Source of the DNA: Acidobacteriota bacterium
GTDB lineage: Bacteria; Acidobacteriota; Vicinamibacteria; Vicinamibacterales; UBA8438
Length of the DNA: 64,000 nucleotides
Assembly (NCBI GenBank): GCA_009838525.1
Contig: VXRJ01000004.1
Span: 36,190 to 100,189, forward strand
Direction of reading: 5' to 3'
The notes under the pieces were generated by a model that saw only the letters and a list, made by a program, of their open reading frames with translations, did not search any database and had not been told where the DNA came from. Positions 18,002 through 62,474 of the stretch are shown here, one piece after another (within the stretch, counting starts at the first letter, position 1; each line of letters opens with the position of its first letter). Position numbers and translations under genes: made by a program.

Positions 18002-18071
18002 CCGGTGCGCCAGCGTCCACGCCGACCTGGATGCCGGCGCACCATGGCGTACGCGTATTAACATCTCGCGC

Positions 18072-23422: not shown

Positions 23423-25754
23423 GCCGGGTCACCGGCACACCGGGCGCCAGCTCGAGCGCGTCCCCCTCGTGCACGATGATGGCCGGCGTATCTCCGGTCA
23501 GCGTGTAGGTAGCCTCGGCCGGAGTCATTTCGACGTCGAGCCGCTGCCCGCGGATTTGCAGCGCGAAGCGGAGCCGCCCGAGCGCCTCCGGGACCCGCGG
23601 CGAGAACTTGATGGCCCCCCGGAAGTCGCGCATCCCGGCGAAGCCGTAGATCAGCGTCATCCAGAACCCGCCCATCGAGGCGATATGGCAGCCGTCCTGC
23701 ACGTTGCCGGCCACATCCGCGAGATCCATGAGCCCGGCGTCGGTCGAATAGCGGAACGCCCGGTCCGCCTCCCCCACCTCGGAGGCGACGATGCTCTCGA
23801 TCGAGCACGAGAGTGAGGAATCGCGCGTCGTCAGCGGATCGTAGAAGTTGAAGTTGTTCCGCTTCTGTTCGAACGAAAACTCGTCGCCCAGAAGGAACAT
23901 CGCCAGCACGACGTCCGCCTGCTTGACCACCCGGTGACGGTATATGACGAGCGGATGGTAGTGCAGCAGCAGCGGGTACTTGTCCTGCGGCGTGTTCGCG
24001 AAATCCCAGTCCTCTTTTTCGTTGAAGCTGTCGTCCTGCAGGTGGACCCGTTGCGATTCGTCGTACGGGACGTACATCAGGCTCGCGGCGCGCCGCCATT
24101 CGTCCACTTCGTCCAGATCGAGCCCGGTATCCCGAACCAGTGCGGCAAACTGCGCCGGATCGGCGTCGTGCAACCGGTTGATCGTGGCGGCGGCATACCA
24201 GAGGTTCTCGCGCGCCATCAGGTTGGTATAGAGATTGTTGTTCACCACCGTGTTGTATTCGTCCGGCCCGGTGACGCCGTTGATCTTGAAACTGACGTCG
24301 TCCGGACGATCCGGCCGCTGCGCATAGAAACCCAGGTCCGCCCAGAGCCGCGCCGTCTCCACGAGGAGCTCGGCGCCCACCTTCGCCAGGAAGTCGTCGT
24401 CCCCCGTCACGTCGACGTACTTGCGCAGCGCGTAGGCGATATCCGCGTTTATGTGGTACTGCGCCGTGCCGGCCGCGTAGTAGGCGGAGGCCTCGTCGCC
24501 GTTGATTGTCCGCCAGGGGAAGAGCGCGCCCTTCTGGTTCACCTCACGCGCCCGTTGGCGCGCCTTGCCGAGGTAGCGGTGCCGCTCGCGCAGCAGGTTC
24601 TGCGCAATGCGCGGCGTCGTGTAGGTGAGAAACGGCAGGAGATAGATCTCGGTGTCCCAGAAATAGTGGCCCTCGTACCCGGGTCCGGTCAGCCCCTTCG
24701 CGGGAACGCCTACCCCCTCGGCGCGCGCCGTCGCCTGGCAGATGTGAAACAGGTTGAACCGGATCGTCCGCTGCCATTCCCGGTGACCGACGACGATGTC
24801 GGCGCGGTCCCAGAATCCGTCGAGAAAGCGGCGTTGGCTCTCGAGCAGGTCCTGAACGCCGCGCTTGACCGCCCGGTCCAGCACGCGCCGCGCCTCGCGG
24901 CAGAGCTCTTCCGCACCGCGGCGGCTCGATGAGGAGTGGTAGGCGATGTACTTGACGATCCGGATCCGCGTGTTCGCCCTGCCGTCGATCGAGAAGACGA
25001 CGCGGCCGCCCGCGGCGTCGGCCTGTGTCTCCGTGGTGACGGCGCAGTCGGTTTCAACGGTGTGATCGACCGAGCACGACAGCGTCATCCCGCTCGACCT
25101 GGCGGCGTAGCCCCGGACGATGCGGAGGCCGCGCGTCTCGCTGACGCGCGACTTGAGCACCTCGCATCCCACCTGCCTGCTGCGGGGGTCGCCGTTCTGA
25201 TGTTCGGCACGGCGCGAATCGGCAATCTCGGACTCGATCACAACCGGCGCGTCGTGGGCCAGGGTCACGTCGTAGATGATCGCCGCAAGGTGCCGGTGCT
25301 CGAGCGAGACGATGCGTCTCGACTCGAGGGTGACGCGCTGGCCCGAGCTGTGGCGCCACACCAGGCGGCGGTCGAGCGTGCCGGCCCGCATGTCGAGCGC
25401 CCGCTCGAACTCGTCGAGCGTGGCGGTCGGCAGGAAGAGCGGTTCGTCGTCGACGTAGAGCCGGAGGATCTTCGCGTCCGGCACGTCGACAATCGTCTGT
25501 CCCACCTTGGCGAAGCCGAACGCCTCCTCGGCGTACACGATCGGCCAGGTCTCGTGGAAACCGTTCACGTAGGTGCCGCTGTAGGCGACCGGCAGCCCTT
25601 CGTCGCAGGTACCGCGCATGCCGACGTAGCCGTTGGCGAGGGCAAAGATCGACTCCGACGCGGCAAGACGCCGCTCATCGAATTCCGTCTCGATGAGACG
25701 CCACTCGTCGTGCTTGTAGATGCCGTCAAGCGAGTGCGGCCTGTGGTTCGCCAT
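23313..25754 (-). CDS. glycoside hydrolase family 65 phosphorylase (trehalose/maltose/kojibiose phosphorylase-like)
   Basis: 813 aa. N-terminal FALANGYVGMRG and catalytic-domain YEGHYFWDTEIY. The 3' end overlaps the convergent BON gene by 110 nt. Confidence 0.9.
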   Translation of the reverse strand: MANHRPHSLDGIYKHDEWRLIETEFDERRLAASESIFALANGYVGMRGTCDEGLPVAYSGTYVNGFHETWPIVYAEEAFGFAKVGQTIVDVPDAKILRLYVDDEPLFLPTATLDEFERALDMRAGTLDRRLVWRHSSGQRVTLESRRIVSLEHRHLAAIIYDVTLAHDAPVVIESEIADSRRAEHQNGDPRSRQVGCEVLKSRVSETRGLRIVRGYAARSSGMTLSCSVDHTVETDCAVTTETQADAAGGRVVFSIDGRANTRIRIVKYIAYHSSSSRRGAEELCREARRVLDRAVKRGVQDLLESQRRFLDGFWDRADIVVGHREWQRTIRFNLFHICQATARAEGVGVPAKGLTGPGYEGHYFWDTEIYLLPFLTYTTPRIAQNLLRERHRYLGKARQRAREVNQKGALFPWRTINGDEASAYYAAGTAQYHINADIAYALRKYVDVTGDDDFLAKVGAELLVETARLWADLGFYAQRPDRPDDVSFKINGVTGPDEYNTVVNNNLYTNLMARENLWYAAATINRLHDADPAQFAALVRDTGLDLDEVDEWRRAASLMYVPYDESQRVHLQDDSFNEKEDWDFANTPQDKYPLLLHYHPLVIYRHRVVKQADVVLAMFLLGDEFSFEQKRNNFNFYDPLTTRDSSLSCSIESIVASEVGEADRAFRYSTDAGLMDLADVAGNVQDGCHIASMGGFWMTLIYGFAGMRDFRGAIKFSPRVPEALGRLRFALQIRGQRLDVEMTPAEATYTLTGDTPAIIVHEGDALELAPGVPVTRPTGSATGSRPAAPLASGPRSAEAQAARSGSGRSRPV

Positions 25755-26623
25755 TAGCCCAGCGTCTCGGCCAGATCGTTCACGACGACATCCGCTCCCG
25801 CCGCCGCCAGCTCCGTCGGCGCGCCGGTCCGGTCAATCGCGACGACCAGCCCGAACCCGCCGCCGCGCGCCGCCTGCACACCGGCGATCGCATCCTCGAC
25901 AACCGCCGCACGGTCCGGCGGGATGCCCATTGCCCGCGCCGCATGCACGAACATGTCGGGCGCCGGCTTCCCGGCCAGTCCCTCCGCCTCCGCCGTCAGT
26001 CCGTCGACCCGTAGTTCGAAGCGATCCGCAATTCCCGCCGCGTCCAGTATTTCCCCGCACCCGCGGCTCGACGAAACGACGGCTGTCCGCACGCCGTTCG
26101 CGCGCAGGTGCCGGACCACGGCCAGCGAGCCATCGTAGGTCTCGACGCCCTCGGTTGCCACCAGCTCGTGAAACAGCGCGTTCTTCCGGTTGCCCAGGGC
26201 GCAGACGGTTCCGTCCCCGGGAGCATCCGACGGCTCGCCGTCCGGCAAGGTGATTCCGCGCGATTCCAGAAACGCCCGCACGCCGTCATAGCGCGGCCGC
26301 CCGTCAACGTAGCGCGTGTAGTCCCGGTCCTCGAACGGGCGAAAGCACGCGCCGGCGGGCCCGCCGGCCGGTGCGCCGGTCGGTGCGCCGGTCTCCAGAC
26401 CGGCACTTCCAGCACGTCCGCCGCTTCCGGCACCTGCGGCAGCCGCCTCCCGATCCGCCAGAAACCGGTCGAACATCCGCTTCCAGCTCGCTGCATGCAA
26501 CCGCGCGGTCGCTGTCAACACACCATCCAGATCGAACAGCACCGCTTCGTAGGCAGCCCACTCGATCGGGGCAGCGCCCCGGCCCGCCGGCGCTTGCAGG
26601 GACTCGCCCTGCCGGACGGTCAA
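25754..26623 (-). CDS. pgmB: beta-phosphoglucomutase-family HAD hydrolase
   Basis: HAD motif [18 protein letters not shown] and [17 protein letters not shown] overlap with the GH65 start. Putative TTG start at 26623. Contains an Ala/Gly-rich insert that coincides with the hairpin repeat. Confidence 0.85.
26370..26405 (-). repeat. REP/RPE-like hairpin repeat (reverse orientation, one full plus one partial copy) inside pgmB
   Basis: GGTGCGCCGGTC followed by GGTGCGCCGGTCTCCAGACCGGCA. The stem GCCGGTC/GACCGGC is a compensated variant of the consensus. Confidence 0.75.
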
Positions 26624-30080: not shown

Positions 30081-30329
30081 GGCGTACCCTCCCGTTTCCG
30101 GAACCGCAGCTCCGCAGTCCATCCGTGCTCGGCAACCGTGCGGATCAGTTATCACGGCGGGTTGTGAGACGGCAACGCATGGCAAGCGAAAACTGCTGGT
30201 CGCAGGAGCTTCGTGGGGGTAGGATTCACACAACGAGCAACCCACCCATGCACGGTTGACCGCTGCGTAGAACCAACGCACGGACGTTCGGCACGACGTT
30301 CGCCCGTAGCGTCGCGAGAGGAGGAAGCG

Positions 30330-31553
30330 ATGCCACGCAACCGCGAGCGGGGGATCTCCCGCCGCCAGCTCATCACGACGGCCGCCACGGCGCTGGCCGT
30401 CACCACCCTCCCTTCCACCCGGAACGCTCTCGCCCAGTCCGCCGACACCACCAAAGCCCCAGGCGTTCCTCCCAGTGCCCTCGGCGAACGCTCGCCGCAC
30501 GCGCCGCTTTCCCGCGGCGCCCTGACCGGCGGCTCATCCCGGACGCCACTACAGGACCTGCACGGCATGATCACGCCGTCCGACGTCCACTTCGAACGTC
30601 ACCACGCCGGCGTGCCGTCGGTCGACCCGAACGACTACCAGTTGCTGATTCACGGCCTGGTCGACCGCCCGATGATCTTCACGCTCGACGAACTGAAACG
30701 CTTCCCCGCCACGTCGCGCATCTGCTTCCTCGAGTGCTCCGGCAATTACCCGCAGGCGGCCGGACCCGAGACGAAACCGGAAAACGTCGCCGGCATGACG
30801 GCGACGACCGAGTGGACCGGCGTCACGCTCGCGACCCTCTTCCGCGAGGTGGGAGCGAGCCCCGATGCCACCTGGTTCCTCGCCGAGGGTCAGGACGCCG
30901 CCGTCATGACGCGGAGCGTCCCCATGGAAAAGGCATGGGACGACGCGATGGTCGCCTACGCCCAGAACGGCGAGCCGCTCCGCCCGTCGCAGGGCTATCC
31001 GGCGCGGCTGCTGCTGCCCGGTTGGGAAGGGAACTCGAACGTCAAGTGGCTACGCCGGCTGGAGCTGGCCGACCAGCCGTTCATGACGCGTGAGGAGACC
31101 TCCAAGTACACCGACCCGATGGTCGACGGTACGGCGCGGCAATTCAGCTTCGTCTTCGACGCGCGCTCGCTGATCACGTCGCCGGCGTACCCCGAGGTCG
31201 TGGAGCCGGGCTGGATCGAAATCCGGGGCATCGCCTGGTCGGGCCGCGGCGCCATCGCACAGGTGGACATCAGCACGGACGGCGGCGGCACCTGGGAGCC
31301 GGCGCGCCTGCAGGAGCCGGTCCTCCGCCAGGCGCACGTCCGTTTCCGTCACGTCTGGCAGTGGGACGGCAGCGAAACCGCGATCATGAGCCGCGCGACC
31401 GACGACACCGGCTACGTCCAGCCGACGCGCGCGCAACTCCGGGAGCAGCGAGGCCGCCGGGCCCGGCGCTACCACCTCAACCCGATAACCGCCTGGCGCA
31501 TCCAGCCCGACGGACACGTCTTCTACCGCGAGGAGGAACCGTGGGACGCGTGA
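30330..31553 (+). CDS. sorA: sulfite dehydrogenase/oxidase molybdopterin subunit (SorA-like), Tat-exported
   Basis: ATG 30330 after GAGAGGAGGA. Twin-arginine signal SRRQLITTAA. Moco-binding Cys block FLECSGN. SUOX-family dimerisation domain. Confidence 0.85.
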   Translation: MPRNRERGISRRQLITTAATALAVTTLPSTRNALAQSADTTKAPGVPPSALGERSPHAPLSRGALTGGSSRTPLQDLHGMITPSDVHFERHHAGVPSVDPNDYQLLIHGLVDRPMIFTLDELKRFPATSRICFLECSGNYPQAAGPETKPENVAGMTATTEWTGVTLATLFREVGASPDATWFLAEGQDAAVMTRSVPMEKAWDDAMVAYAQNGEPLRPSQGYPARLLLPGWEGNSNVKWLRRLELADQPFMTREETSKYTDPMVDGTARQFSFVFDARSLITSPAYPEVVEPGWIEIRGIAWSGRGAIAQVDISTDGGGTWEPARLQEPVLRQAHVRFRHVWQWDGSETAIMSRATDDTGYVQPTRAQLREQRGRRARRYHLNPITAWRIQPDGHVFYREEEPWDA

Positions 31554-32260
31554 GACCTGGCACACTGGCTGGTGCGCCGGCCTCCAGGCCGGCTCTCACC
31601 CCGCGCCCGCCGCGAGGACGTTTCCGCCTCCCACTGCTCGCCCTGGCGATCCTCGCGGCCGGTTGCGCGGCCACGGAAGGCGAGCCTCCCGCCGCCGATG
31701 CGCCGGCGATGACCGATGCCGCGCCCGCGAACACCGGCGCCGGCACGGACGCGCCGGCCGGCCATCCCGATCGCTTCGGCTTCGGCCGCGAGGCGACGCA
31801 CGAGGAGATCGCCGCCTGGGACATCGACGTCATGCCTGACGGCACCGGCCTCCCGGAGGGCGAAGGGACCCACGCCGACGGCACGCCGCTCTACCTTCGC
31901 CACTGCGCCAGTTGCCACGGCCGGACCGGCGAGGGCGGCAGCGCCGAACCGCTCGTCGGCTACGAACCGGAGACCGCGCCTCCCTTCGGGCCGCGCTACG
32001 AGGAATGGCGCGGCGACGGCGCGGACGTCCCGTTCACGGTGGGGAACTATTGGCCCTACGCCACGACGCTCTTCGACTACATCCGGAGAGCGATGCCGTC
32101 GAACGCTCCGGGCACGCTCTCGAGCGACGAGGTCTACGCGCTGACCGCCTGGCTTCTGGCCGAGAACGGCATCATCGGGGAGGACGCGGCCATGAACGCC
32201 ACCACCCTGCCTCAGGTGGCGATGCCCGCGCGGGACGTCTTCGTACCGCAGGAACGGTAG
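31541..32260 (+). CDS. sorB: monohaem cytochrome c subunit (SorB-like), lipoprotein
   Basis: GTG at 31541 or 31550 (GTGA overlap with the sorA stop), after AGGAGGA. Lipobox LAAGC and haem motif CASCH. The hairpin repeat lies within the predicted N-terminal signal region. Confidence 0.75.
   Translation: MGRVRPGTLAGAPASRPALTPRPPRGRFRLPLLALAILAAGCAATEGEPPAADAPAMTDAAPANTGAGTDAPAGHPDRFGFGREATHEEIAAWDIDVMPDGTGLPEGEGTHADGTPLYLRHCASCHGRTGEGGSAEPLVGYEPETAPPFGPRYEEWRGDGADVPFTVGNYWPYATTLFDYIRRAMPSNAPGTLSSDEVYALTAWLLAENGIIGEDAAMNATTLPQVAMPARDVFVPQER
31571..31593 (-). repeat. REP/RPE-like hairpin repeat (reverse orientation) at the sorA-sorB junction
   Basis: GGTGCGCCGGCCTCCAGGCCGGC. In the sorB frame it reads GAPASRPA. 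Confidence 0.8.
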
Positions 32261-39311: not shown

Positions 39312-39369
39312 TCTATGCCGGCCTGGAGGCCGGCGCACCGTCTATGCCGGCCTGGAGGCCGGCGCACCG
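39312..39369 (+). repeat. two perfect tandem 29-bp copies of the REP/RPE-like hairpin repeat
   Basis: TCTATGCCGGCCTGGAGGCCGGCGCACCG occurs twice, followed by a degenerate third copy to about 39392. It lies in the divergent gap between the OsmC-like gene and the DUF442 gene. Confidence 0.9.
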
Positions 39370-41524: not shown

Positions 41525-41548
41525 AGCCGACCTGGAGGTCGGCGCACC
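41525..41548 (+). repeat. REP/RPE-like hairpin repeat (compensated stem variant)
   Basis: AGCCGACCTGGAGGTCGGCGCACC, 5 nt after the decarboxylase stop and between convergent genes. The G-to-A and C-to-T changes keep the stem paired. Confidence 0.8.
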
Positions 41549-45818: not shown

Positions 45819-45843
45819 GGTGCGCCGGCCTCCAGGCCGGCAT
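45819..45843 (-). repeat. REP/RPE-like hairpin repeat (reverse orientation)
   Basis: GGTGCGCCGGCCTCCAGGCCGGCAT starts 2 nt after the permease stop, between convergent genes. Confidence 0.85.
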
Positions 45844-52635: not shown

Positions 52636-54342
<1,707 letters not shown>

Positions 54343-54366: not shown

Positions 54367-56100
54367 CTAAGGCGAGCCCGGATTGGTCGCGGCCGGGCGT
54401 GTCGCCGCCAGGTTGGCTGCCGTGGCGGCGGTCAGAGCGCGATCAATTCTAGCGAGACAGACGTCGCGGCCGAGGATCGCCATCGCGTCGAAGAGGCCGA
54501 AGCCGACCGGCTTGCCGGTGACGCCGACCCGGACGGCGTGGATGATGGCGCCGATCCGGACGCCTTCCGATTCGACGAAACGGTGCAGGGCGGCTTCGAC
54601 GGTGGCGGCGTCGAAGGGGTCGACGTCAGCCAGCGCGGACCGGAAGCGGCCGAGCCGGCCGGCGGCGCCGGGCGCGCCGACGCGCTTGCCGAACGCCTTG
54701 GCGTCGTAGGGGAAGGCGTCGTCAGCAACGAAGAATTCGGTGTAGTTGACGATGTCGCCGGCCACCTTGAGGCGGTCGGCGGCAGCGGTGACGACGGCGC
54801 CGAGCTTGCCGGGGTCTGCGGGTGCCGGCGTGGACGCCGGCGGACCGGGTGCCGGCCTGGAGGCCGGCGGATCACCCGGCGGACCATGTGCCGGCGTGGA
54901 CGCCGGCGGACCGGCAGACGCACCGGCCTGCGCACCAAGGGCGGCGGCGAGGTAGGGGCGCACCAGCTCGACCTTCTCGTCCAGGGGCAGTCGCGCCATG
55001 CGGCGCTCCTGGAACGCCAGCAGCTTCTGCGGATCGAAGCTGGCCGCCGACTTGTTGACGCGCTCGAGCGAGAAGTTCGCAATCATCGCGTCGCGCGAGA
55101 AGTCCTCGGTGTGGTCGTCGAGCGACCAGCCGACGAGCAGCAGGTAGTTGAGGAGCGCGTCCGGGAGATAGCCGACCGACCGGTAAAACCGGACCATCAC
55201 CGGGTTGAAGGCGTCGTCGTCCGTCGTCTCGCCCAACGCCGCCATGATGCCCGCCGCGTGCTCGTACGCCTTCCGGAAGTCATCCTGCTTCAGGTACTTG
55301 CCCAGCTTCCGCTTGCTGAGCTTCTCGCTGCCGCCCGGCGCCGCCACGTACGGCACGTGCGCATAGCGCGGCAGGTCGTAGCCGAGCGACTGCATGATGA
55401 AGATCTGCCGCGGCGTGTTCGACAGGTGCTCCTCGGCCCGGATGACGTGCGTGATGTCGAAGTCGTGGTCGTCCACCGCGCTCGCCAGGTGATAGAGGGG
55501 CGTGCCGTCGGCCCGCTGAATCACGTGGTCCTGCTCCAGCGCCCAGTCGAACGCGACGGGGCCGCGCACCAGGTCGTCGAACGCGCAGGCGCCCTCGCGC
55601 GGCATCTTCAGGCGGACGACGGCCGTGCGGCCTTCCGACTCGAAGCGCGCCGCGTCGGCGTCCGTCTCCGCCATCCACCGGCGGCTGTAGATGAAGCGCT
55701 GCTTGGCCCGCTGCGCCGCCTCGCGCTCCGCCGCCGTCTCGTCCGCCGTCGCGTAGTCCCGGTAGGCGCAGCCGCACGCGAGCAGCGCGTCGACTGCGGC
55801 ACGGTGGCGATCGCCCCGCTCCGACTGGAAGTACGGCGCGCACCGACCGCCCACCTCCGGCCCCTCGTCCCAGTCGATGCCGAGCCACCGGAAACCGTCC
55901 AGGATCGGCTCCAGCGCCTCGGCGACGTTGCGCTCGCGGTCGGTGTCGTCGATCCGGAGGATGAACTGCCCGCCGTGGCGTCGCGCGAAGAGCCAGTTGA
56001 ACAGCGCCGTCCGCACCCCGCCGATGTGCAGGTAGCCGGTCGGGCTCGGTGCAAACCGCGTTCGGATCTCTACTGTGCGCCCTTCGCCTCCGCTATCCAA
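54367..56100 (-). CDS. gltX: glutamate--tRNA ligase (with Pro/Ala-rich insert)
   Basis: [14 protein letters not shown] (HIGH) and KLSKRK. 577 aa if TTG 56100 is the start; this overlaps the upstream gene by 31 nt. Contains a ~35-aa insert encoded by three hairpin-repeat copies. Confidence 0.9.
54821..54936 (+). repeat. three tandem REP/RPE-like hairpin repeat copies lying in frame inside gltX
   Basis: GTGCCGGCGTGGACGCCGGCGGACC, then GTGCCGGCCTGGAGGCCGGCGGATC, then GTGCCGGCGTGGACGCCGGCGGACC, plus a degenerate tail. Translated on the minus strand this gives [31 protein letters not shown]. Confidence 0.8.
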
Positions 56101-56609
56101 TCTTTGACCTTCCTAACCGCCTCCGTTGCGGCAACATCGGCAATGTGCGGCTTATATAGCGTCAGTCTTCCCACTTGGTCTCGTTCGGCTACCGTTGGCT
56201 CACTCTTAACCACGTGAAGAGCCGTAGCATATCGTTCCAAATCTGCCGCGCCCTTGTTGTCGACCCTCTCAGCGACGAACTCCAGGCTGGCTTCGTGCGC
56301 TTCCAAAGTCCTGGAAAATCGGCTGTGAAAGCACTGCGTCCGGTCCGTGGTTTCAAACCTCGAACCCAAGCGGGCGCCGGAAGCCAACTGGACAAGCCCG
56401 TCGGCCCGCAGGCTCGTCAGCTCATCCCTGAGGTCGAACGAGTATGGGCCGTACTTGTAAAGTACAAAGTCGAAACCCAGATGCACACTCTTCAACTCCT
56501 GGAGAAAATATACTGCCTTCTGAATATGGGTCTCTCCGCACCGACTTCCCCGAGTCTGCAGCGCATCCATCAGCTTCGTGAGTACAGCCGCCCTCGCCAG
56601 TCTATTCAT
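56070..56609 (-). CDS. YwgA/Panacea-like small protein partnered with the HD phosphohydrolase
   Basis: ATG 56609 overlaps the HD gene stop (ATGAATAG), 179 aa. [38 protein letters not shown]. Low G+C like the HD gene. The last ~10 codons run into GC-rich gltX sequence. Confidence 0.7.
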
Positions 56610-57921
56610 CGTCCTCCTCCTCCGGAAGCCGAATGATCTCCTCCCGGTTCTCCTGAACCCACTTCTTCGCTTCCTCCGCAACCGAATCGTGGGCAAATAC
56701 ATTGTCCACTGACCATACGGGCACTTCCTTCAGCAGCGTCGACACGTCGACAGACGAAACCACCCCGTCGGCGAGCTCGACGGGAAAGTCCTGCGACACG
56801 CTTCTCGGCCCCGAGCGGTCACGCCTGACCATGTCCGGCCCGTACTTGCTGCACAGCGCTTCGTAAACATCCGCTCCCGCCTCCGGATTGATCTCCACGT
56901 CCGCCGGGTTGCGCTGGTAAACGACTTTGAAGTGCCTACGGTGAACAATGCGGTTCGCGTGGACATGCCCCACACGGCTAGGATCGTCGGCCGCCTGCCG
57001 CAACATCACGGTCATCTCGTCGTCGGTACAGCGGAGATGTTCCTGGACCTCGATAGAGAAAACGCCGTCACTGAGGGTTTCTCGCAGGAAGTCCAACAGA
57101 TGTATGTCATAGATCCGCCTGACGGGATGAAAACAGACCTGCGAGTACATGAAGTACCGCGCAAGCATAAGCGCTTCCGCGGAGTGCCTCCCACCTTCCT
57201 CCAGGCCAAGTGCGAGTTCTCCAGCCGTTTCCGCCTCCGGGTCGTCAGGAACACGGAGAATGCGAAGGGTGTCGATGAGCCGATAGTGATCAAACTTTCC
57301 GTAGGCGACGCCAGTGTGGTGCGAATCACGAAGCAGATAGTCCATCCGGTCAACGCCAAACGCGTCGCCAACGATGATGTCAGCAAGAATAGATTCCCAG
57401 GACGAGAATGTCAGATCCCTCGCTTCGCCCGGCCCGAGCGCCAGCTTCACAATGTCGCCACATCTGAGAGGCGGCGTCATCGCATGCCAAACGGACCGCA
57501 GTGGCTCACTTTCGATGAGCGCGCGCGTGAGACGCTCGTGATTCCATCCATCCGGCAAGAGTTCCTCGGCTGCGTGGGAGAAGGGAAGGTGCCCAATGTC
57601 ATGACACAGCGCCGCCATGCGAAGGACGCGTCGCCAGTAGTCGAATTGCTCGCGCGGTGCTCCGAGGCGTTCCCGAATCTCATCGGTCAAGTGTGCGCGA
57701 GCGGTGACGACGTCGAACACCCGGGTCGCGAGTTCCATGACGCCGAGCGAGTGCTCGAATCGACGATGCGTGGCGCCAGGATAGACGAGGTAGGTGAGCG
57801 CCAGTTGATGGATGTGCCGCAGACGCTGGAACGGAGCGGAGTCGAGGACCTCTCGCTCGGTGCTATCCAGGCGCACGAAGACGTGAATCGGATCCCTGAT
57901 CTCGTGTACGTGCTTCGGCAC
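56602..57921 (-). CDS. SAMHD1-like HD-domain phosphohydrolase (COG1078-type putative dNTP triphosphohydrolase)
   Basis: 439 aa. IRDPIHVFVRL, FQRLRHIHQL, HRRFEHSLGV, CHDIGHLPFSH and VDRMDYLLRDS give the H...HD...D pattern. G+C is visibly lower (about 53% in sampled lines) than in flanking genes. Confidence 0.85.
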   Translation of the reverse strand: MPKHVHEIRDPIHVFVRLDSTEREVLDSAPFQRLRHIHQLALTYLVYPGATHRRFEHSLGVMELATRVFDVVTARAHLTDEIRERLGAPREQFDYWRRVLRMAALCHDIGHLPFSHAAEELLPDGWNHERLTRALIESEPLRSVWHAMTPPLRCGDIVKLALGPGEARDLTFSSWESILADIIVGDAFGVDRMDYLLRDSHHTGVAYGKFDHYRLIDTLRILRVPDDPEAETAGELALGLEEGGRHSAEALMLARYFMYSQVCFHPVRRIYDIHLLDFLRETLSDGVFSIEVQEHLRCTDDEMTVMLRQAADDPSRVGHVHANRIVHRRHFKVVYQRNPADVEINPEAGADVYEALCSKYGPDMVRRDRSGPRSVSQDFPVELADGVVSSVDVSTLLKEVPVWSVDNVFAHDSVAEEAKKWVQENREEIIRLPEEEDDE

Positions 57922-58876: not shown

Positions 58877-58901
58877 TTTGCCGGCCTGGAGGCCGGCGCA
58901 C
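58877..58901 (+). repeat. REP/RPE-like hairpin repeat
   Basis: TTGCCGGCCTGGAGGCCGGCGCACC between the esterase stop and the vapC stop. Confidence 0.85.
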
Positions 58902-58941
58902 CGGGCAGCCTCGACCGCGGCGCACCGAGTGGACTCGACCG

Positions 58942-59355
58942 CTATCCATCCCTACCCGACGGACGGACGTCAGCCATCGCAAGATCCGTGCGCGGAAAGT
59001 CGTCGCCCTTGGACAAGAGCGGCTCTCCGAATCGCCGCGCAAGTGCGTAGGTGAAGCAGTCCCCGAAGTTGAGTCCGGCCCGATGCCGCCCTTGCCCGTA
59101 GTCGCTGAACGCCTGCCGGGCGATCTTCGCCTGAGCCGCATCGACCGCGATGACCTCGATCCCGGCATCGTCCAGCCACCGGTCGAGCAGGAGAATGCCC
59201 TCAGCCCCGTGGCGGGACTCCAGAATCATCGAAGTCTCAACGAAGGTCGCAGCAGACATCCGCACCACCTCAGCCCCTACGATCGCGTCGACAAACGACT
59301 CGCGTTCCCGCTCTCCCAGCAGAATCGCCACGATGGCAGACGAGTCGATCACCAT
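58942..59355 (-). CDS. vapC: PIN-domain toxin VapC
   Basis: ATG 59355 inside ORF 58942..59433, 137 aa. MVIDSSAIVAIL, with conserved acidic residues and NFGDCFTYALA typical of VapC. TGATG overlap with vapB. Confidence 0.88.
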   Translation of the reverse strand: MVIDSSAIVAILLGERERESFVDAIVGAEVVRMSAATFVETSMILESRHGAEGILLLDRWLDDAGIEVIAVDAAQAKIARQAFSDYGQGRHRAGLNFGDCFTYALARRFGEPLLSKGDDFPRTDLAMADVRPSGRDG

Positions 59356-59609
59356 CAGGTCGGCAGGCCGTCTTCGTCGTAGCCGATGATCTCGTCGGCG
59401 GACCGGGAATCCAGTACCGGTAGCTGCGCGCACCGTCGGGCAATGTCCAGTAGACGTTCTCGACGCGAACGCCCCGACCGATCGTCACGCAGGCGATCGA
59501 GCCTCTCCCGTATGGCGTCGGTTACCGCTTGCGTCTTCGACTGCCCAGTGAGCCGCGCCAATTCCGCCGCCAACCGCTCCGTCTCGGCATTCCTGAGGTT
59601 GAGTGCCAT
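59355..59609 (-). CDS. vapB: VapB-family antitoxin
   Basis: 84 aa: MALNLRNAETERLAAELARLTGQSKTQAVTDAIRERL. It lies immediately upstream of and overlaps vapC. Confidence 0.85.
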   Translation of the reverse strand: MALNLRNAETERLAAELARLTGQSKTQAVTDAIRERLDRLRDDRSGRSRRERLLDIARRCAQLPVLDSRSADEIIGYDEDGLPT

Positions 59610-59666: not shown

Positions 59667-59703
59667 AGCCGGCCTGGAGGCCGGCGCACCAGGCCGGCGC
59701 ACC
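59667..59703 (+). repeat. REP/RPE-like hairpin repeat plus partial duplicate
   Basis: AGCCGGCCTGGAGGCCGGCGCACC followed by AGGCCGGCGCACC, in the divergent gap between vapB and the aldo/keto reductase gene. Confidence 0.85.
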
Positions 59704-62207: not shown

Positions 62208-62220
62208 CCGCTCTTGCGGT

Positions 62221-62243
62221 CCGCCGGCCTGGTGCGCCGGCCT
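62221..62243. repeat. truncated/rearranged REP/RPE-like repeat abutting the poly-G tract
   Basis: CCGCCGGCCTGGTGCGCCGGCCT: repeat halves without a complete hairpin, immediately followed by the G run. Confidence 0.6.

Positions 62244-62474
<231 letters not shown>

Follow-up and report, generated by a model that had tools for sequence, protein, structure and literature searches.

The 64-kb window analysed here is a stretch of 64,000 nt from contig VXRJ01000004.1 of an acidobacterial genome assembly (GCA_009838525.1). It contains the glutamate--tRNA ligase gene gltX (54367-56100, minus strand), whose reading frame includes an array, in frame, of a short, dispersed hairpin repeat. The host, which has a G+C content of 68%, is described as a soil-type acidobacterium (Vicinamibacterales). 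The 577 amino acid product carries HIGH-type (HIGG) and KMSKS-type (KLSKR) motifs and matches the Pfam profiles tRNA-synt_1c (PF00749) at residues 11-276 and Anticodon_2 (PF19269) at residues 428-556. It scores 417 bits against TIGR00464, the model for bacterial glutamate--tRNA ligase (cutoff 290), and solved structures of glutamyl-tRNA synthetase (GluRS) match it at E = 1e-86. Directly downstream lies the gene for a glutamine--tRNA ligase (52636-54342).

The insert is derived from a repetitive extragenic palindromic (REP) element and covers 132 nt or 44 codons (54808-54939, minus strand; residues 388-431 of gltX). It is built from a dispersed 24-nt element, GGTGC-GCCGGCC-TCCA-GGCCGGC-A, which is present in three complete copies, a half copy and two remnants of the head, all on the minus strand. 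At the 5' edge of the insert are the two decayed head remnants (54919-54936), with GGTGCG at 54931-54936 and at 54919-54924. They are followed by copy A (54889-54912; GGTCCGCCGGCGTCCACGCCGGCA), whose head is GGTCC and whose stem is a compensated variant, and which is read as GPPASTPA (residues 397-404), and by the half copy, made of the head and the 5' stem arm (54876-54885; GGTCCGCCGG). Copy B (54850-54873; GATCCGCCGGCCTCCAGGCCGGCA) has the canonical stem and is read as DPPASRPA (residues 410-417), and copy C (54823-54846; GGTCCGCCGGCGTCCACGCCGGCA) is identical to copy A and again read as GPPASTPA (residues 419-426). On the coding strand the full copies start 39 nt and 27 nt apart, both multiples of three. 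The only departures of these copies from the consensus are the head variant, GGTCC or GATCC, and, in two copies, the compensated exchange of a C-G for a G-C stem pair. Folded as DNA, copy A gives a 7-bp stem with a 4-nt loop (-9.8 kcal/mol).

The original prediction, made from the letters of this DNA, had proposed three in-frame copies of a dispersed repeat in gltX, in units of multiples of 3 nt, within a Pro/Ala-rich loop of the C-terminal, anticodon-binding half. The three copies and their spacing are as it said, the 36-letter peptide that it quoted matches the translation exactly, and the structural model described below puts the loop at the start of the anticodon-binding domain; its proposal of a repeat-derived insert is supported. 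The interval that it gave, 54821-54936, is repeat-derived as claimed, the true block being slightly wider. Its estimate that the protein exceeds the typical length by about 80-100 amino acids was too high: the excess over the nearest repeat-free homologues (526 amino acids) is 51, and just 31 of these extra residues fall in this loop.

Codon usage sets the insert apart from its host gene. The G+C content at third codon positions is 0.68 in the insert versus 0.92 in the remainder of gltX. Glycine is encoded by GGT in 6 of 7 cases, a codon which makes up 8% of the glycine codons of the genome and is used in 2 of 42 cases in the rest of gltX. GCA encodes 4 of 11 alanines (4.4% genome-wide), and the single arginine codon is AGG (3.9% genome-wide). 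Since protein-level selection on a linker should, in this genome, favour GGC, GCG or GCC, and CGC, the use of GGT, GCA and AGG points to a non-coding origin of the segment.

Misassembly of the gene is unlikely. The identical 577 amino acid protein is found on seven contigs, an independent Logan assembly of SRR9841443 has 100% nucleotide identity across gltX, and relatives carry homologous in-frame arrays at the same site on megabase-scale contigs with 18-69x coverage, whose names suggest long-read assemblies.

The repeat family and its transposase in relatives

Allowing up to three mismatches, the 23-mer GGTGCGCCGGCCTCCAGGCCGGC of the element has 12 copies in the window, versus 0.00 expected, and the 18-nt palindrome with up to two mismatches gives 22 strand-hits, versus 0.29 expected; no shuffle reached either count. 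Nine of the copies lie outside gltX and eight of the 12 are extragenic, the intergenic ones being located 2-25 nt past stop codons and often between convergent genes. A scan of the whole window against Rfam at gathering thresholds returned no family, the hairpin not being an RNA described there.

In a scan that covered one genome per species, the exact 23-mer was found in at least 120 stretches, and those listed come nearly all from three metagenome-assembled genomes (MAGs) of Vicinamibacterales/Vicinamibacteraceae (OZ253543.1, OZ253581.1 and CAZWUJ01). The family statistics are based on 318 copies in 1.09 Mb of fetched loci, and the consensus on the 288 copies that could be aligned with up to two mismatches. 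This consensus is cT-GGTGC-GCCGGCC-TCCA-GGCCGGC-A, with conservation dropping at once in the flanks, and the unit folds as DNA into a hairpin with a 7-bp stem and a 4-nt loop (-9.4 to -9.8 kcal/mol). The hairpin is under constraint across the family: changes on both sides of the stem occur in 4 of the 7 pairs, to an extent attained by 0 of 500 shuffles, and of the copies whose stem has changed, 31 are compensated whereas 20 are broken. Variants among the aligned copies include the GGTCC head (18 copies) and a GCCGGCG...CGCCGGC stem (10 copies). For about 65% of the copies, a stop codon is found no more than 200 nt upstream. The element is thus a short, GC-rich, imperfect palindrome with a stem-loop, present in high copy number, dispersed and mostly intergenic near the 3' ends of genes, as is characteristic of REP families.

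Two of the relatives carry a gene for a REP-associated tyrosine transposase (RAYT). One is located at L111:284-907 (OZ253543.1) and the other at L067:1173-1793 (CAZWUJ01), with scores of 85.1 and 81.3 bits, respectively, against NCBIfam NF047646 (cutoff 80). The two proteins are 78% identical to each other, match Pfam Y1_Tnp (44.9 bits) and have the HUH motif PNHVHVL. Both genes are bracketed by inverted copies of the element, at 151 and 210 (plus strand) on one side and 935, 991 and 1043 (minus strand) on the other in L111, and at 1042, 1077 and 1112 (plus) and 1803, 1837, 1897 and 1957 (minus) in L067. The copies flanking the L067 RAYT carry the GGTCC head, the variant that they share with gltX of their own genome (L123) and with gltX of the window. 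The element is therefore a true REP family, with the layout of a REPtron in relatives of the window's host.

Around the RAYT gene of L111 (100-260 and 930-1100) many copies are double-headed, a head-only unit, GGTGCGCCGCCCCGTACT, standing ahead of a full head and hairpin. The same layout is present in the gltX loops of L004 and L127 and is shared by the two head remnants at the 5' edge of the window's insert; the moving unit may be one of about 40-45 nt rather than 24 nt. Relatives also carry regular direct arrays of the element, at L038 1008-1359 (87-nt period), L070 3134-3354 (66 nt), L049 1246-1370 (51 nt) and L075 2587-2705 (32 nt), whose fixed period differs from the inverted doublets of classical REPINs (REP doublets forming hairpins). 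The array of L038 ends beside a tRNA-like sequence. The arrays of L038, L070 and L049 were checked for coding; in repeats as rich in G+C as these, several frames stay open by default. Across the fetched loci, 49 of the 102 spacings between direct neighbours are multiples of three, above one third.

The identical 23-nt core was also encountered in OZ241745.1, a MAG labelled as alphaproteobacterial and hence of another phylum (L012, L025, L094, L098 and L101), where it has constant flanks of its own (ATCCG-core-ATCCC). To judge from these flanks the copies may form a separate sub-family; a REP/RAYT system may have been transferred horizontally, or the bin may carry a wrong label. A Terriglobia MAG (L080) and Arthrobacter sp. 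YAF34 (L106) each contributed a single exact match of the 23-mer.

The gltX loop among orthologues and in the protein

The search with GltX listed 120 homologues, about 94 of them repeat-free, and in about 80 of these the loop could be delimited. Nearly all of the latter have a loop of 26 amino acids between the flanking helices, e.g. PYLARLGLLGAEPTGADRARVGAVVA, and it is not Pro/Ala-rich. In the 26 closest homologues among the matches listed (at least 73% identity) the loop has 19-64 amino acids with none to three recognisable modules in addition to decayed ones, and some insert is kept in 25 of the 26. The alignment of orthologues, which the original prediction had proposed as a check, delimits the insert and reveals polymorphism both in its presence and in its copy number, from 0 to at least 3 modules.

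The gltX copies share a common origin with the intergenic family. In the gltX genes of L003, L004, L005 and L128 the module GAPASRPA is encoded by GGT GCG CCG GCC TCC AGG CCG GCA, which is exactly the intergenic 24-mer, and L127 has the same 24-nt unit with the last codon changed to GTT. A homologous Pro/Ala segment built from unrelated nucleotides, named in the original prediction as a result that would refute it, was not found among the orthologues: the repeat-bearing ones use the very same 24-mer, and homologues with a repeat-free loop carry an unrelated sequence of 26 amino acids (L126 being the one checked at the DNA level).

The length of the loop changes rapidly. Outside the loop, the proteins P0007 and P0014 share 98.8% identity and P0010 and P0015 share 98.2%, but the loops of the first pair differ in length by 25 amino acids and those of the second by 28. 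P0011 (533 amino acids) has no module and a loop of 19 amino acids, 7 below the ancestral 26, and adjoins the repeat-bearing P0009 in the tree. P0011 was considered as an ancestral empty site and rejected, since a loop shorter than the ancestral one, together with its nesting by P0009, indicates a secondary deletion. This loss of the insert shows that the loop is dispensable.

P0028 has a repeat-free loop of 26 amino acids, and its 21.6-kb locus (L126) is free of any copy of the repeat. The DNA of its loop (gene at L126 10001-11629) has codons which are strikingly AT-rich for the lineage (CTA, TTC, ATG, CTT, GAT, AAT and AAA), and this ancestral loop contains GGCGCGCGGCT, with a loose resemblance to the REP head. 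Comparison of P0028 with the one-copy P0023 was also considered as a clean insertion junction, which was rejected because the loop is replaced and no target duplication is visible.

The reason why the enzyme may tolerate the insert can be looked for in the repeat itself and in the location of the loop. The 24-mer corresponds to eight codons and has no stop in any of its six frames, which read GAPASRPA, VRRPPGRQ, CAGLQAGR, AGLEAGAP, PAWRPAHL and CRPGGRRT. In an AlphaFold2 model built from a 41-sequence alignment (mean predicted local distance difference test, pLDDT, 72.9), residues 397-425 have a pLDDT below 50 and no secondary structure, and they lie between helices 373-395 and 430-443. The insert is accordingly modelled as disordered, in a loop that links the first helix of the anticodon-binding domain to the second; the structure check suggested in the original prediction came out in its favour. 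At this loop the solved GluRS structures of E. coli and M. tuberculosis have about 24-25 residues versus 60 in the window's protein. In the GluRS-tRNA structure of T. thermophilus the helix that follows presumably leads to a conserved arginine of the anticodon-binding domain (R443 here), which we take as a lead only, towards a possible co-option of the insert. At the level of the mRNA, the predicted fold across the array is very stable, with -95.4 kcal/mol over 151 nt (z = -4.2).

Origin and maintenance of the insert

We interpret the gltX segment, with a probability of roughly 0.85, as an array of REP elements that multiplied with a RAYT in one Vicinamibacterales lineage and that sits in frame in gltX as a tolerated passenger. 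The narrower statement, that the insert is REP-derived and tolerated by the enzyme, can be made with high confidence. That the RAYT was the agent which moved the element into gltX is probable to a lesser degree. According to the proposed mechanism one unit, probably double-headed and of about 40-45 nt, would have landed in, or replaced, the DNA for the GluRS loop that joins helices one and two of the anticodon-binding domain, and in the frame of gltX it would be read in eight codons as Gly-Ala/Pro-Pro-Ala-Ser-Arg/Thr-Pro-Ala. Because the 24-nt unit is stop-free and encodes flexible residues, its arrival would lengthen a surface loop and not break the enzyme. The array would then have expanded, contracted and decayed, with a deletion in one lineage. 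Copy number in gltX likely changes by slippage between the direct copies, and slippage or recombination of this kind would be the same process as for the intergenic direct tandem arrays. The segment is presumably translated, and it is most likely neutral, with no required function.

A number of observations weigh against this account. The stem is intact in all three coding copies of gltX, which makes selection on the hairpin, or a function of it, possible. P0023, with its one copy, is 90.6% identical to P0028, and in it the repeat replaced about 10 ancestral codons and is not a simple interruption; in this comparison no clean empty site or target-site duplication was seen. In a neighbour-joining tree P0027 and P0028, both free of the repeat, fall within the repeat-bearing clade, which implies more than one insertion at the loop, or recombination, or an error of the tree. 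The 288-copy consensus has at its ends no conserved GTAG or CGTC, the tags that mark the REP super-families so far described. Neighbours within 150 nt of each other are mostly direct (102, versus 17 inverted), in distinction to the inverted doublets of REPINs, and given these direct neighbours the mobilised unit and its mechanism may differ from those of classical REPINs. Finally, a tblastn search of the 64-kb window with the L111 RAYT found no RAYT, and the link to a transposase comes from two related genomes, not the window's own.

The strongest of the alternatives is that copies spread to gltX without a transposase, through gene conversion, a template switch from copies nearby or repair primed by the hairpin, with an unrelated or inactive RAYT. 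We regard it as the less probable route. The lack of a target-site duplication or clean empty site, with the ancestral loop replaced, is in its favour; the direct arrays with half copies look like slippage or template switching, and together with the missing empty site they keep a template-switch or gene-conversion route alive. The GGCGCGCGGCT of the ancestral loop in P0028, being loosely like a REP head, fits the same explanation. Against it stand the two RAYT genes bracketed by inverted copies of exactly this element, in the classical REPtron layout, and the agreement between the head variant beside the RAYT and that in gltX of the same genome. Co-option of the insert, with a loop that alters recognition of tRNA(Glu) or contacts a partner, or with stable mRNA hairpins that pause ribosomes between domains or set the half-life of the mRNA, appears unlikely to us. 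It would account for the three intact hairpins, one of them with a compensated change, and for the retention of an insert in all but one of the closest homologues listed; however, length and sequence vary greatly among proteins that are 98-99% identical, P0011 lost the insert entirely, and the same element is present in unrelated proteins in three different reading frames. Moreover, the compensated stem is also that of an intergenic sub-family (10 of 288 copies) and need not reflect selection in gltX.

The segment might also have evolved as a plain Pro/Ala linker of low complexity, selected at the protein level, and might resemble the repeat as a by-product of high G+C content. The segment does lie in a loop, and Pro/Ala-rich linkers are common in high-GC bacteria, but the exact 24-nt identity of relatives' modules to the dispersed element, the zero matches expected by chance, the rare GGT, GCA and AGG codons in place of GGC, GCG/GCC and CGC for the same residues, the palindrome kept through a compensated double change, and the loop of repeat-free homologues, nearly always 26 amino acids long and not Pro/Ala-rich, effectively refute it. 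That repeat reads were collapsed or wrongly joined within gltX during assembly is equally hard to maintain. The assembly is of metagenome type and contains a suspicious poly-G/poly-C tract at 62244-62468; on the other hand the reading frame is intact, the protein recurs on seven contigs and in a nucleotide-identical independent assembly, and relatives' megabase-scale contigs have in-frame arrays at the same site. A more far-reaching view, to which we give little weight, is that the REP/RAYT system time and again supplies housekeeping enzymes, such as GluRS, PurH and CysG, with disordered linkers of variable length and of the Pro/Ala (or Ala/Gly/Leu/Glu) kind, with slippage tuning the length on near-strain time scales and the hairpin kept by selection within coding sequence. 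If true, it would mean that protein loop evolution is driven by a mobile element, rather than that an insert is passively tolerated.

Other copies, related systems and significance

A second in-frame REP-derived insert of the window (26348-26449, minus strand) is found in a beta-phosphoglucomutase-like gene of the HAD family (25754-26623, minus strand). It contains a REP at 26382-26404, in the opposite orientation and read as AGLETGAP, followed by half copies. In the closest solved homologue, 8h5s, there are about 4 residues where this protein has about 32, i.e. about 28 fewer. The gene is located downstream of a GH65-like phosphorylase gene. In relatives, in-frame copies are found in purH (L046; AGLEAGAP twice, in a linker of PurH), in a linker of the siroheme synthase gene cysG (L069; PAWRPAH), in a gene for a DNA polymerase III alpha subunit of the dnaE family (L053; in a gap of the PHP-domain match), in the helicase gene lhr (L109), in the inter-domain linker of a two-domain ppk2 (L089), and in the N-terminal region of a DUF59 Fe-S assembly protein (L010, L056 and L014, with one, one and three copies, respectively). 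The copies that could be mapped to domains fall in linkers, in an N-terminal region or in a gap in a domain match. In this small sample the reading frames seen in coding copies are confined to three, those yielding small or neutral residues. In-frame insertion into housekeeping genes, as known from Rickettsia palindromic elements (RPEs), is thus seen in gltX and in the genes for the beta-phosphoglucomutase-like protein, PurH, CysG, the DnaE-family polymerase, Lhr, PPK2 and the DUF59 protein.

The intergenic members of the window include an exact 23-mer at 31571-31593 (plus strand), 18 nt past the stop of the open reading frame (ORF) 30213-31553, and two exact copies in direct tandem with a 29-nt period at 39317-39368 (minus). 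Between convergent genes lie a member with the compensated stem GCCGACC/GGTCGGC (41526-41548, minus), an exact copy 2 nt past a stop codon (45819-45841, plus) and a further exact copy (58880-58902, minus), which is followed by GGCGCACC half copies. Another exact copy (59668-59690, minus) is upstream of an aldo/keto-reductase gene and is likewise followed by half copies. Two overlapping degenerate copies lie at 18009-18043, with no strand assigned. The copies at 58880 and 59668 stand on either side of a toxin-antitoxin pair of VapC (PIN-like)/VapB type (58942-59609), the family being assigned by eye from the translations.

Directly upstream of gltX (56070-57921) are genes for an HD/HD_assoc_2 protein (439 amino acids) and a partner of about 180-210 amino acids, which are also present in L001 and L127 and absent from the otherwise syntenic L002, L003, L005 and L128; this gene pair looks like a small variable island. 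Between two convergent genes at 62244-62468, a run of about 64 G and one of about 68 C surround a spacer made of G and C only, preceded by REP head fragments at 62218-62245. The tract could be a giant hairpin, or poly-G artefacts of sequencing could have caused a join in the assembly, and the final 1.5 kb of the window might then be mis-joined.

REPs of the classical type lie outside genes by definition, REPINs of that type form inverted doublets, and the REP-BIME (bacterial interspersed mosaic element) system of E. coli has the transposase TnpA(REP). The REPIN-RAYT systems were reportedly treated by Nunvar in 2010, by Bertels and Rainey in 2011 and by Ton-Hoang in 2012. With these systems and with the REP-BIME of E. 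coli the present family shares an imperfect, GC-rich palindrome with a head on its 5' side, a single-copy Y1 HUH gene bracketed by inverted copies, and a mainly extragenic location of the copies at gene 3' ends. It differs from classical REPINs in its mostly direct neighbours and in a head that is not GT[AG]G.

REPs located wholly within ORFs have been catalogued in many species by Di Nocera et al. 2013 (BMC Genomics 14:522, PMC3733652). In that survey intragenic REPs are in frame, occur singly, in pairs or in clusters, and encode roughly 7 to 80 amino acids (20-82 for dimers and clusters), and their targets include the glycyl- and isoleucyl-tRNA synthetase genes glyS and ileS as well as dnaE2. 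The original prediction that such insertions are rare outside Rickettsia was therefore overstated. Common to both sets of elements are palindromes of 20-40 bp in high copy number, mostly downstream of genes, RAYTs flanked by REPs and a minority of copies in ORFs, with a DnaE-family polymerase carrying a copy here too (L053). The REP super-families of PMC3733652 are defined by a tetranucleotide, GTAG (GT[AG]G) or CGTC, that is conserved at one of their ends; in distinction to them, the present family has GGTGC (or GGTCC) for a head. The host belongs to the Vicinamibacterales (Acidobacteriota), not reported in the survey with a REP family; clusters are mostly direct and tandem; copy number in gltX varies among 98-99% identical proteins; and gltX is not on the list of targets.

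The first in-frame palindromic repeats in housekeeping genes were the RPEs (Ogata et al. 2000, as presented in PMC10969869 and PMC3733652). As far as those accounts describe them, RPEs are, as here, selfish palindromes in frame in housekeeping genes, with a peptide tolerated at the protein surface. They are set apart by their descriptions: RPEs have about 100-150 bp and about 30-50 amino acids each and belong to AT-rich, obligate intracellular Rickettsia, and they are not known to have a RAYT, whereas the unit here has 24 nt (8 amino acids), is RAYT-associated, forms arrays and resides in a host of 68% G+C. Intragenic MITEs (miniature transposable elements with inverted repeats) and ERIC or BOX elements forming translational fusions are reviewed in PMC10969869. 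The likeness is that a small non-autonomous repeat adds an open frame to a host gene; the hallmarks of those elements, i.e. 70-300 bp, terminal inverted repeats, target-site duplications and DDE transposases, were not seen here. A full-text literature search found the sequence of the present repeat in no paper of the library searched, and a search combining Vicinamibacter with repeats or palindromes found no title or abstract on such repeats.

The phenomenon itself has been known since 2000 in Rickettsia and since 2013 for REPs generally, and the present case adds no new category. New here are the phylum of the host, the lack of the canonical tag in a REP family, the direct arrays, gltX as a target and an orthologue series of gain, expansion, decay and loss. 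It is a well-documented case of a mobile hairpin repeat in the reading frame of an essential aminoacyl-tRNA synthetase, with exact 24-mer identity as the proof at the nucleotide level, and it extends intragenic REPs to the Acidobacteriota and to an untagged REP family. For annotation it means that Pro/Ala-rich 'linkers' in high-GC genomes can be repeat insertions. Such insertions inflate protein length and disturb alignments and domain boundaries, and they are usable as very fast strain markers. The gltX inserts of this lineage offer an experimental system in which the neutrality of such insertions can be tested.

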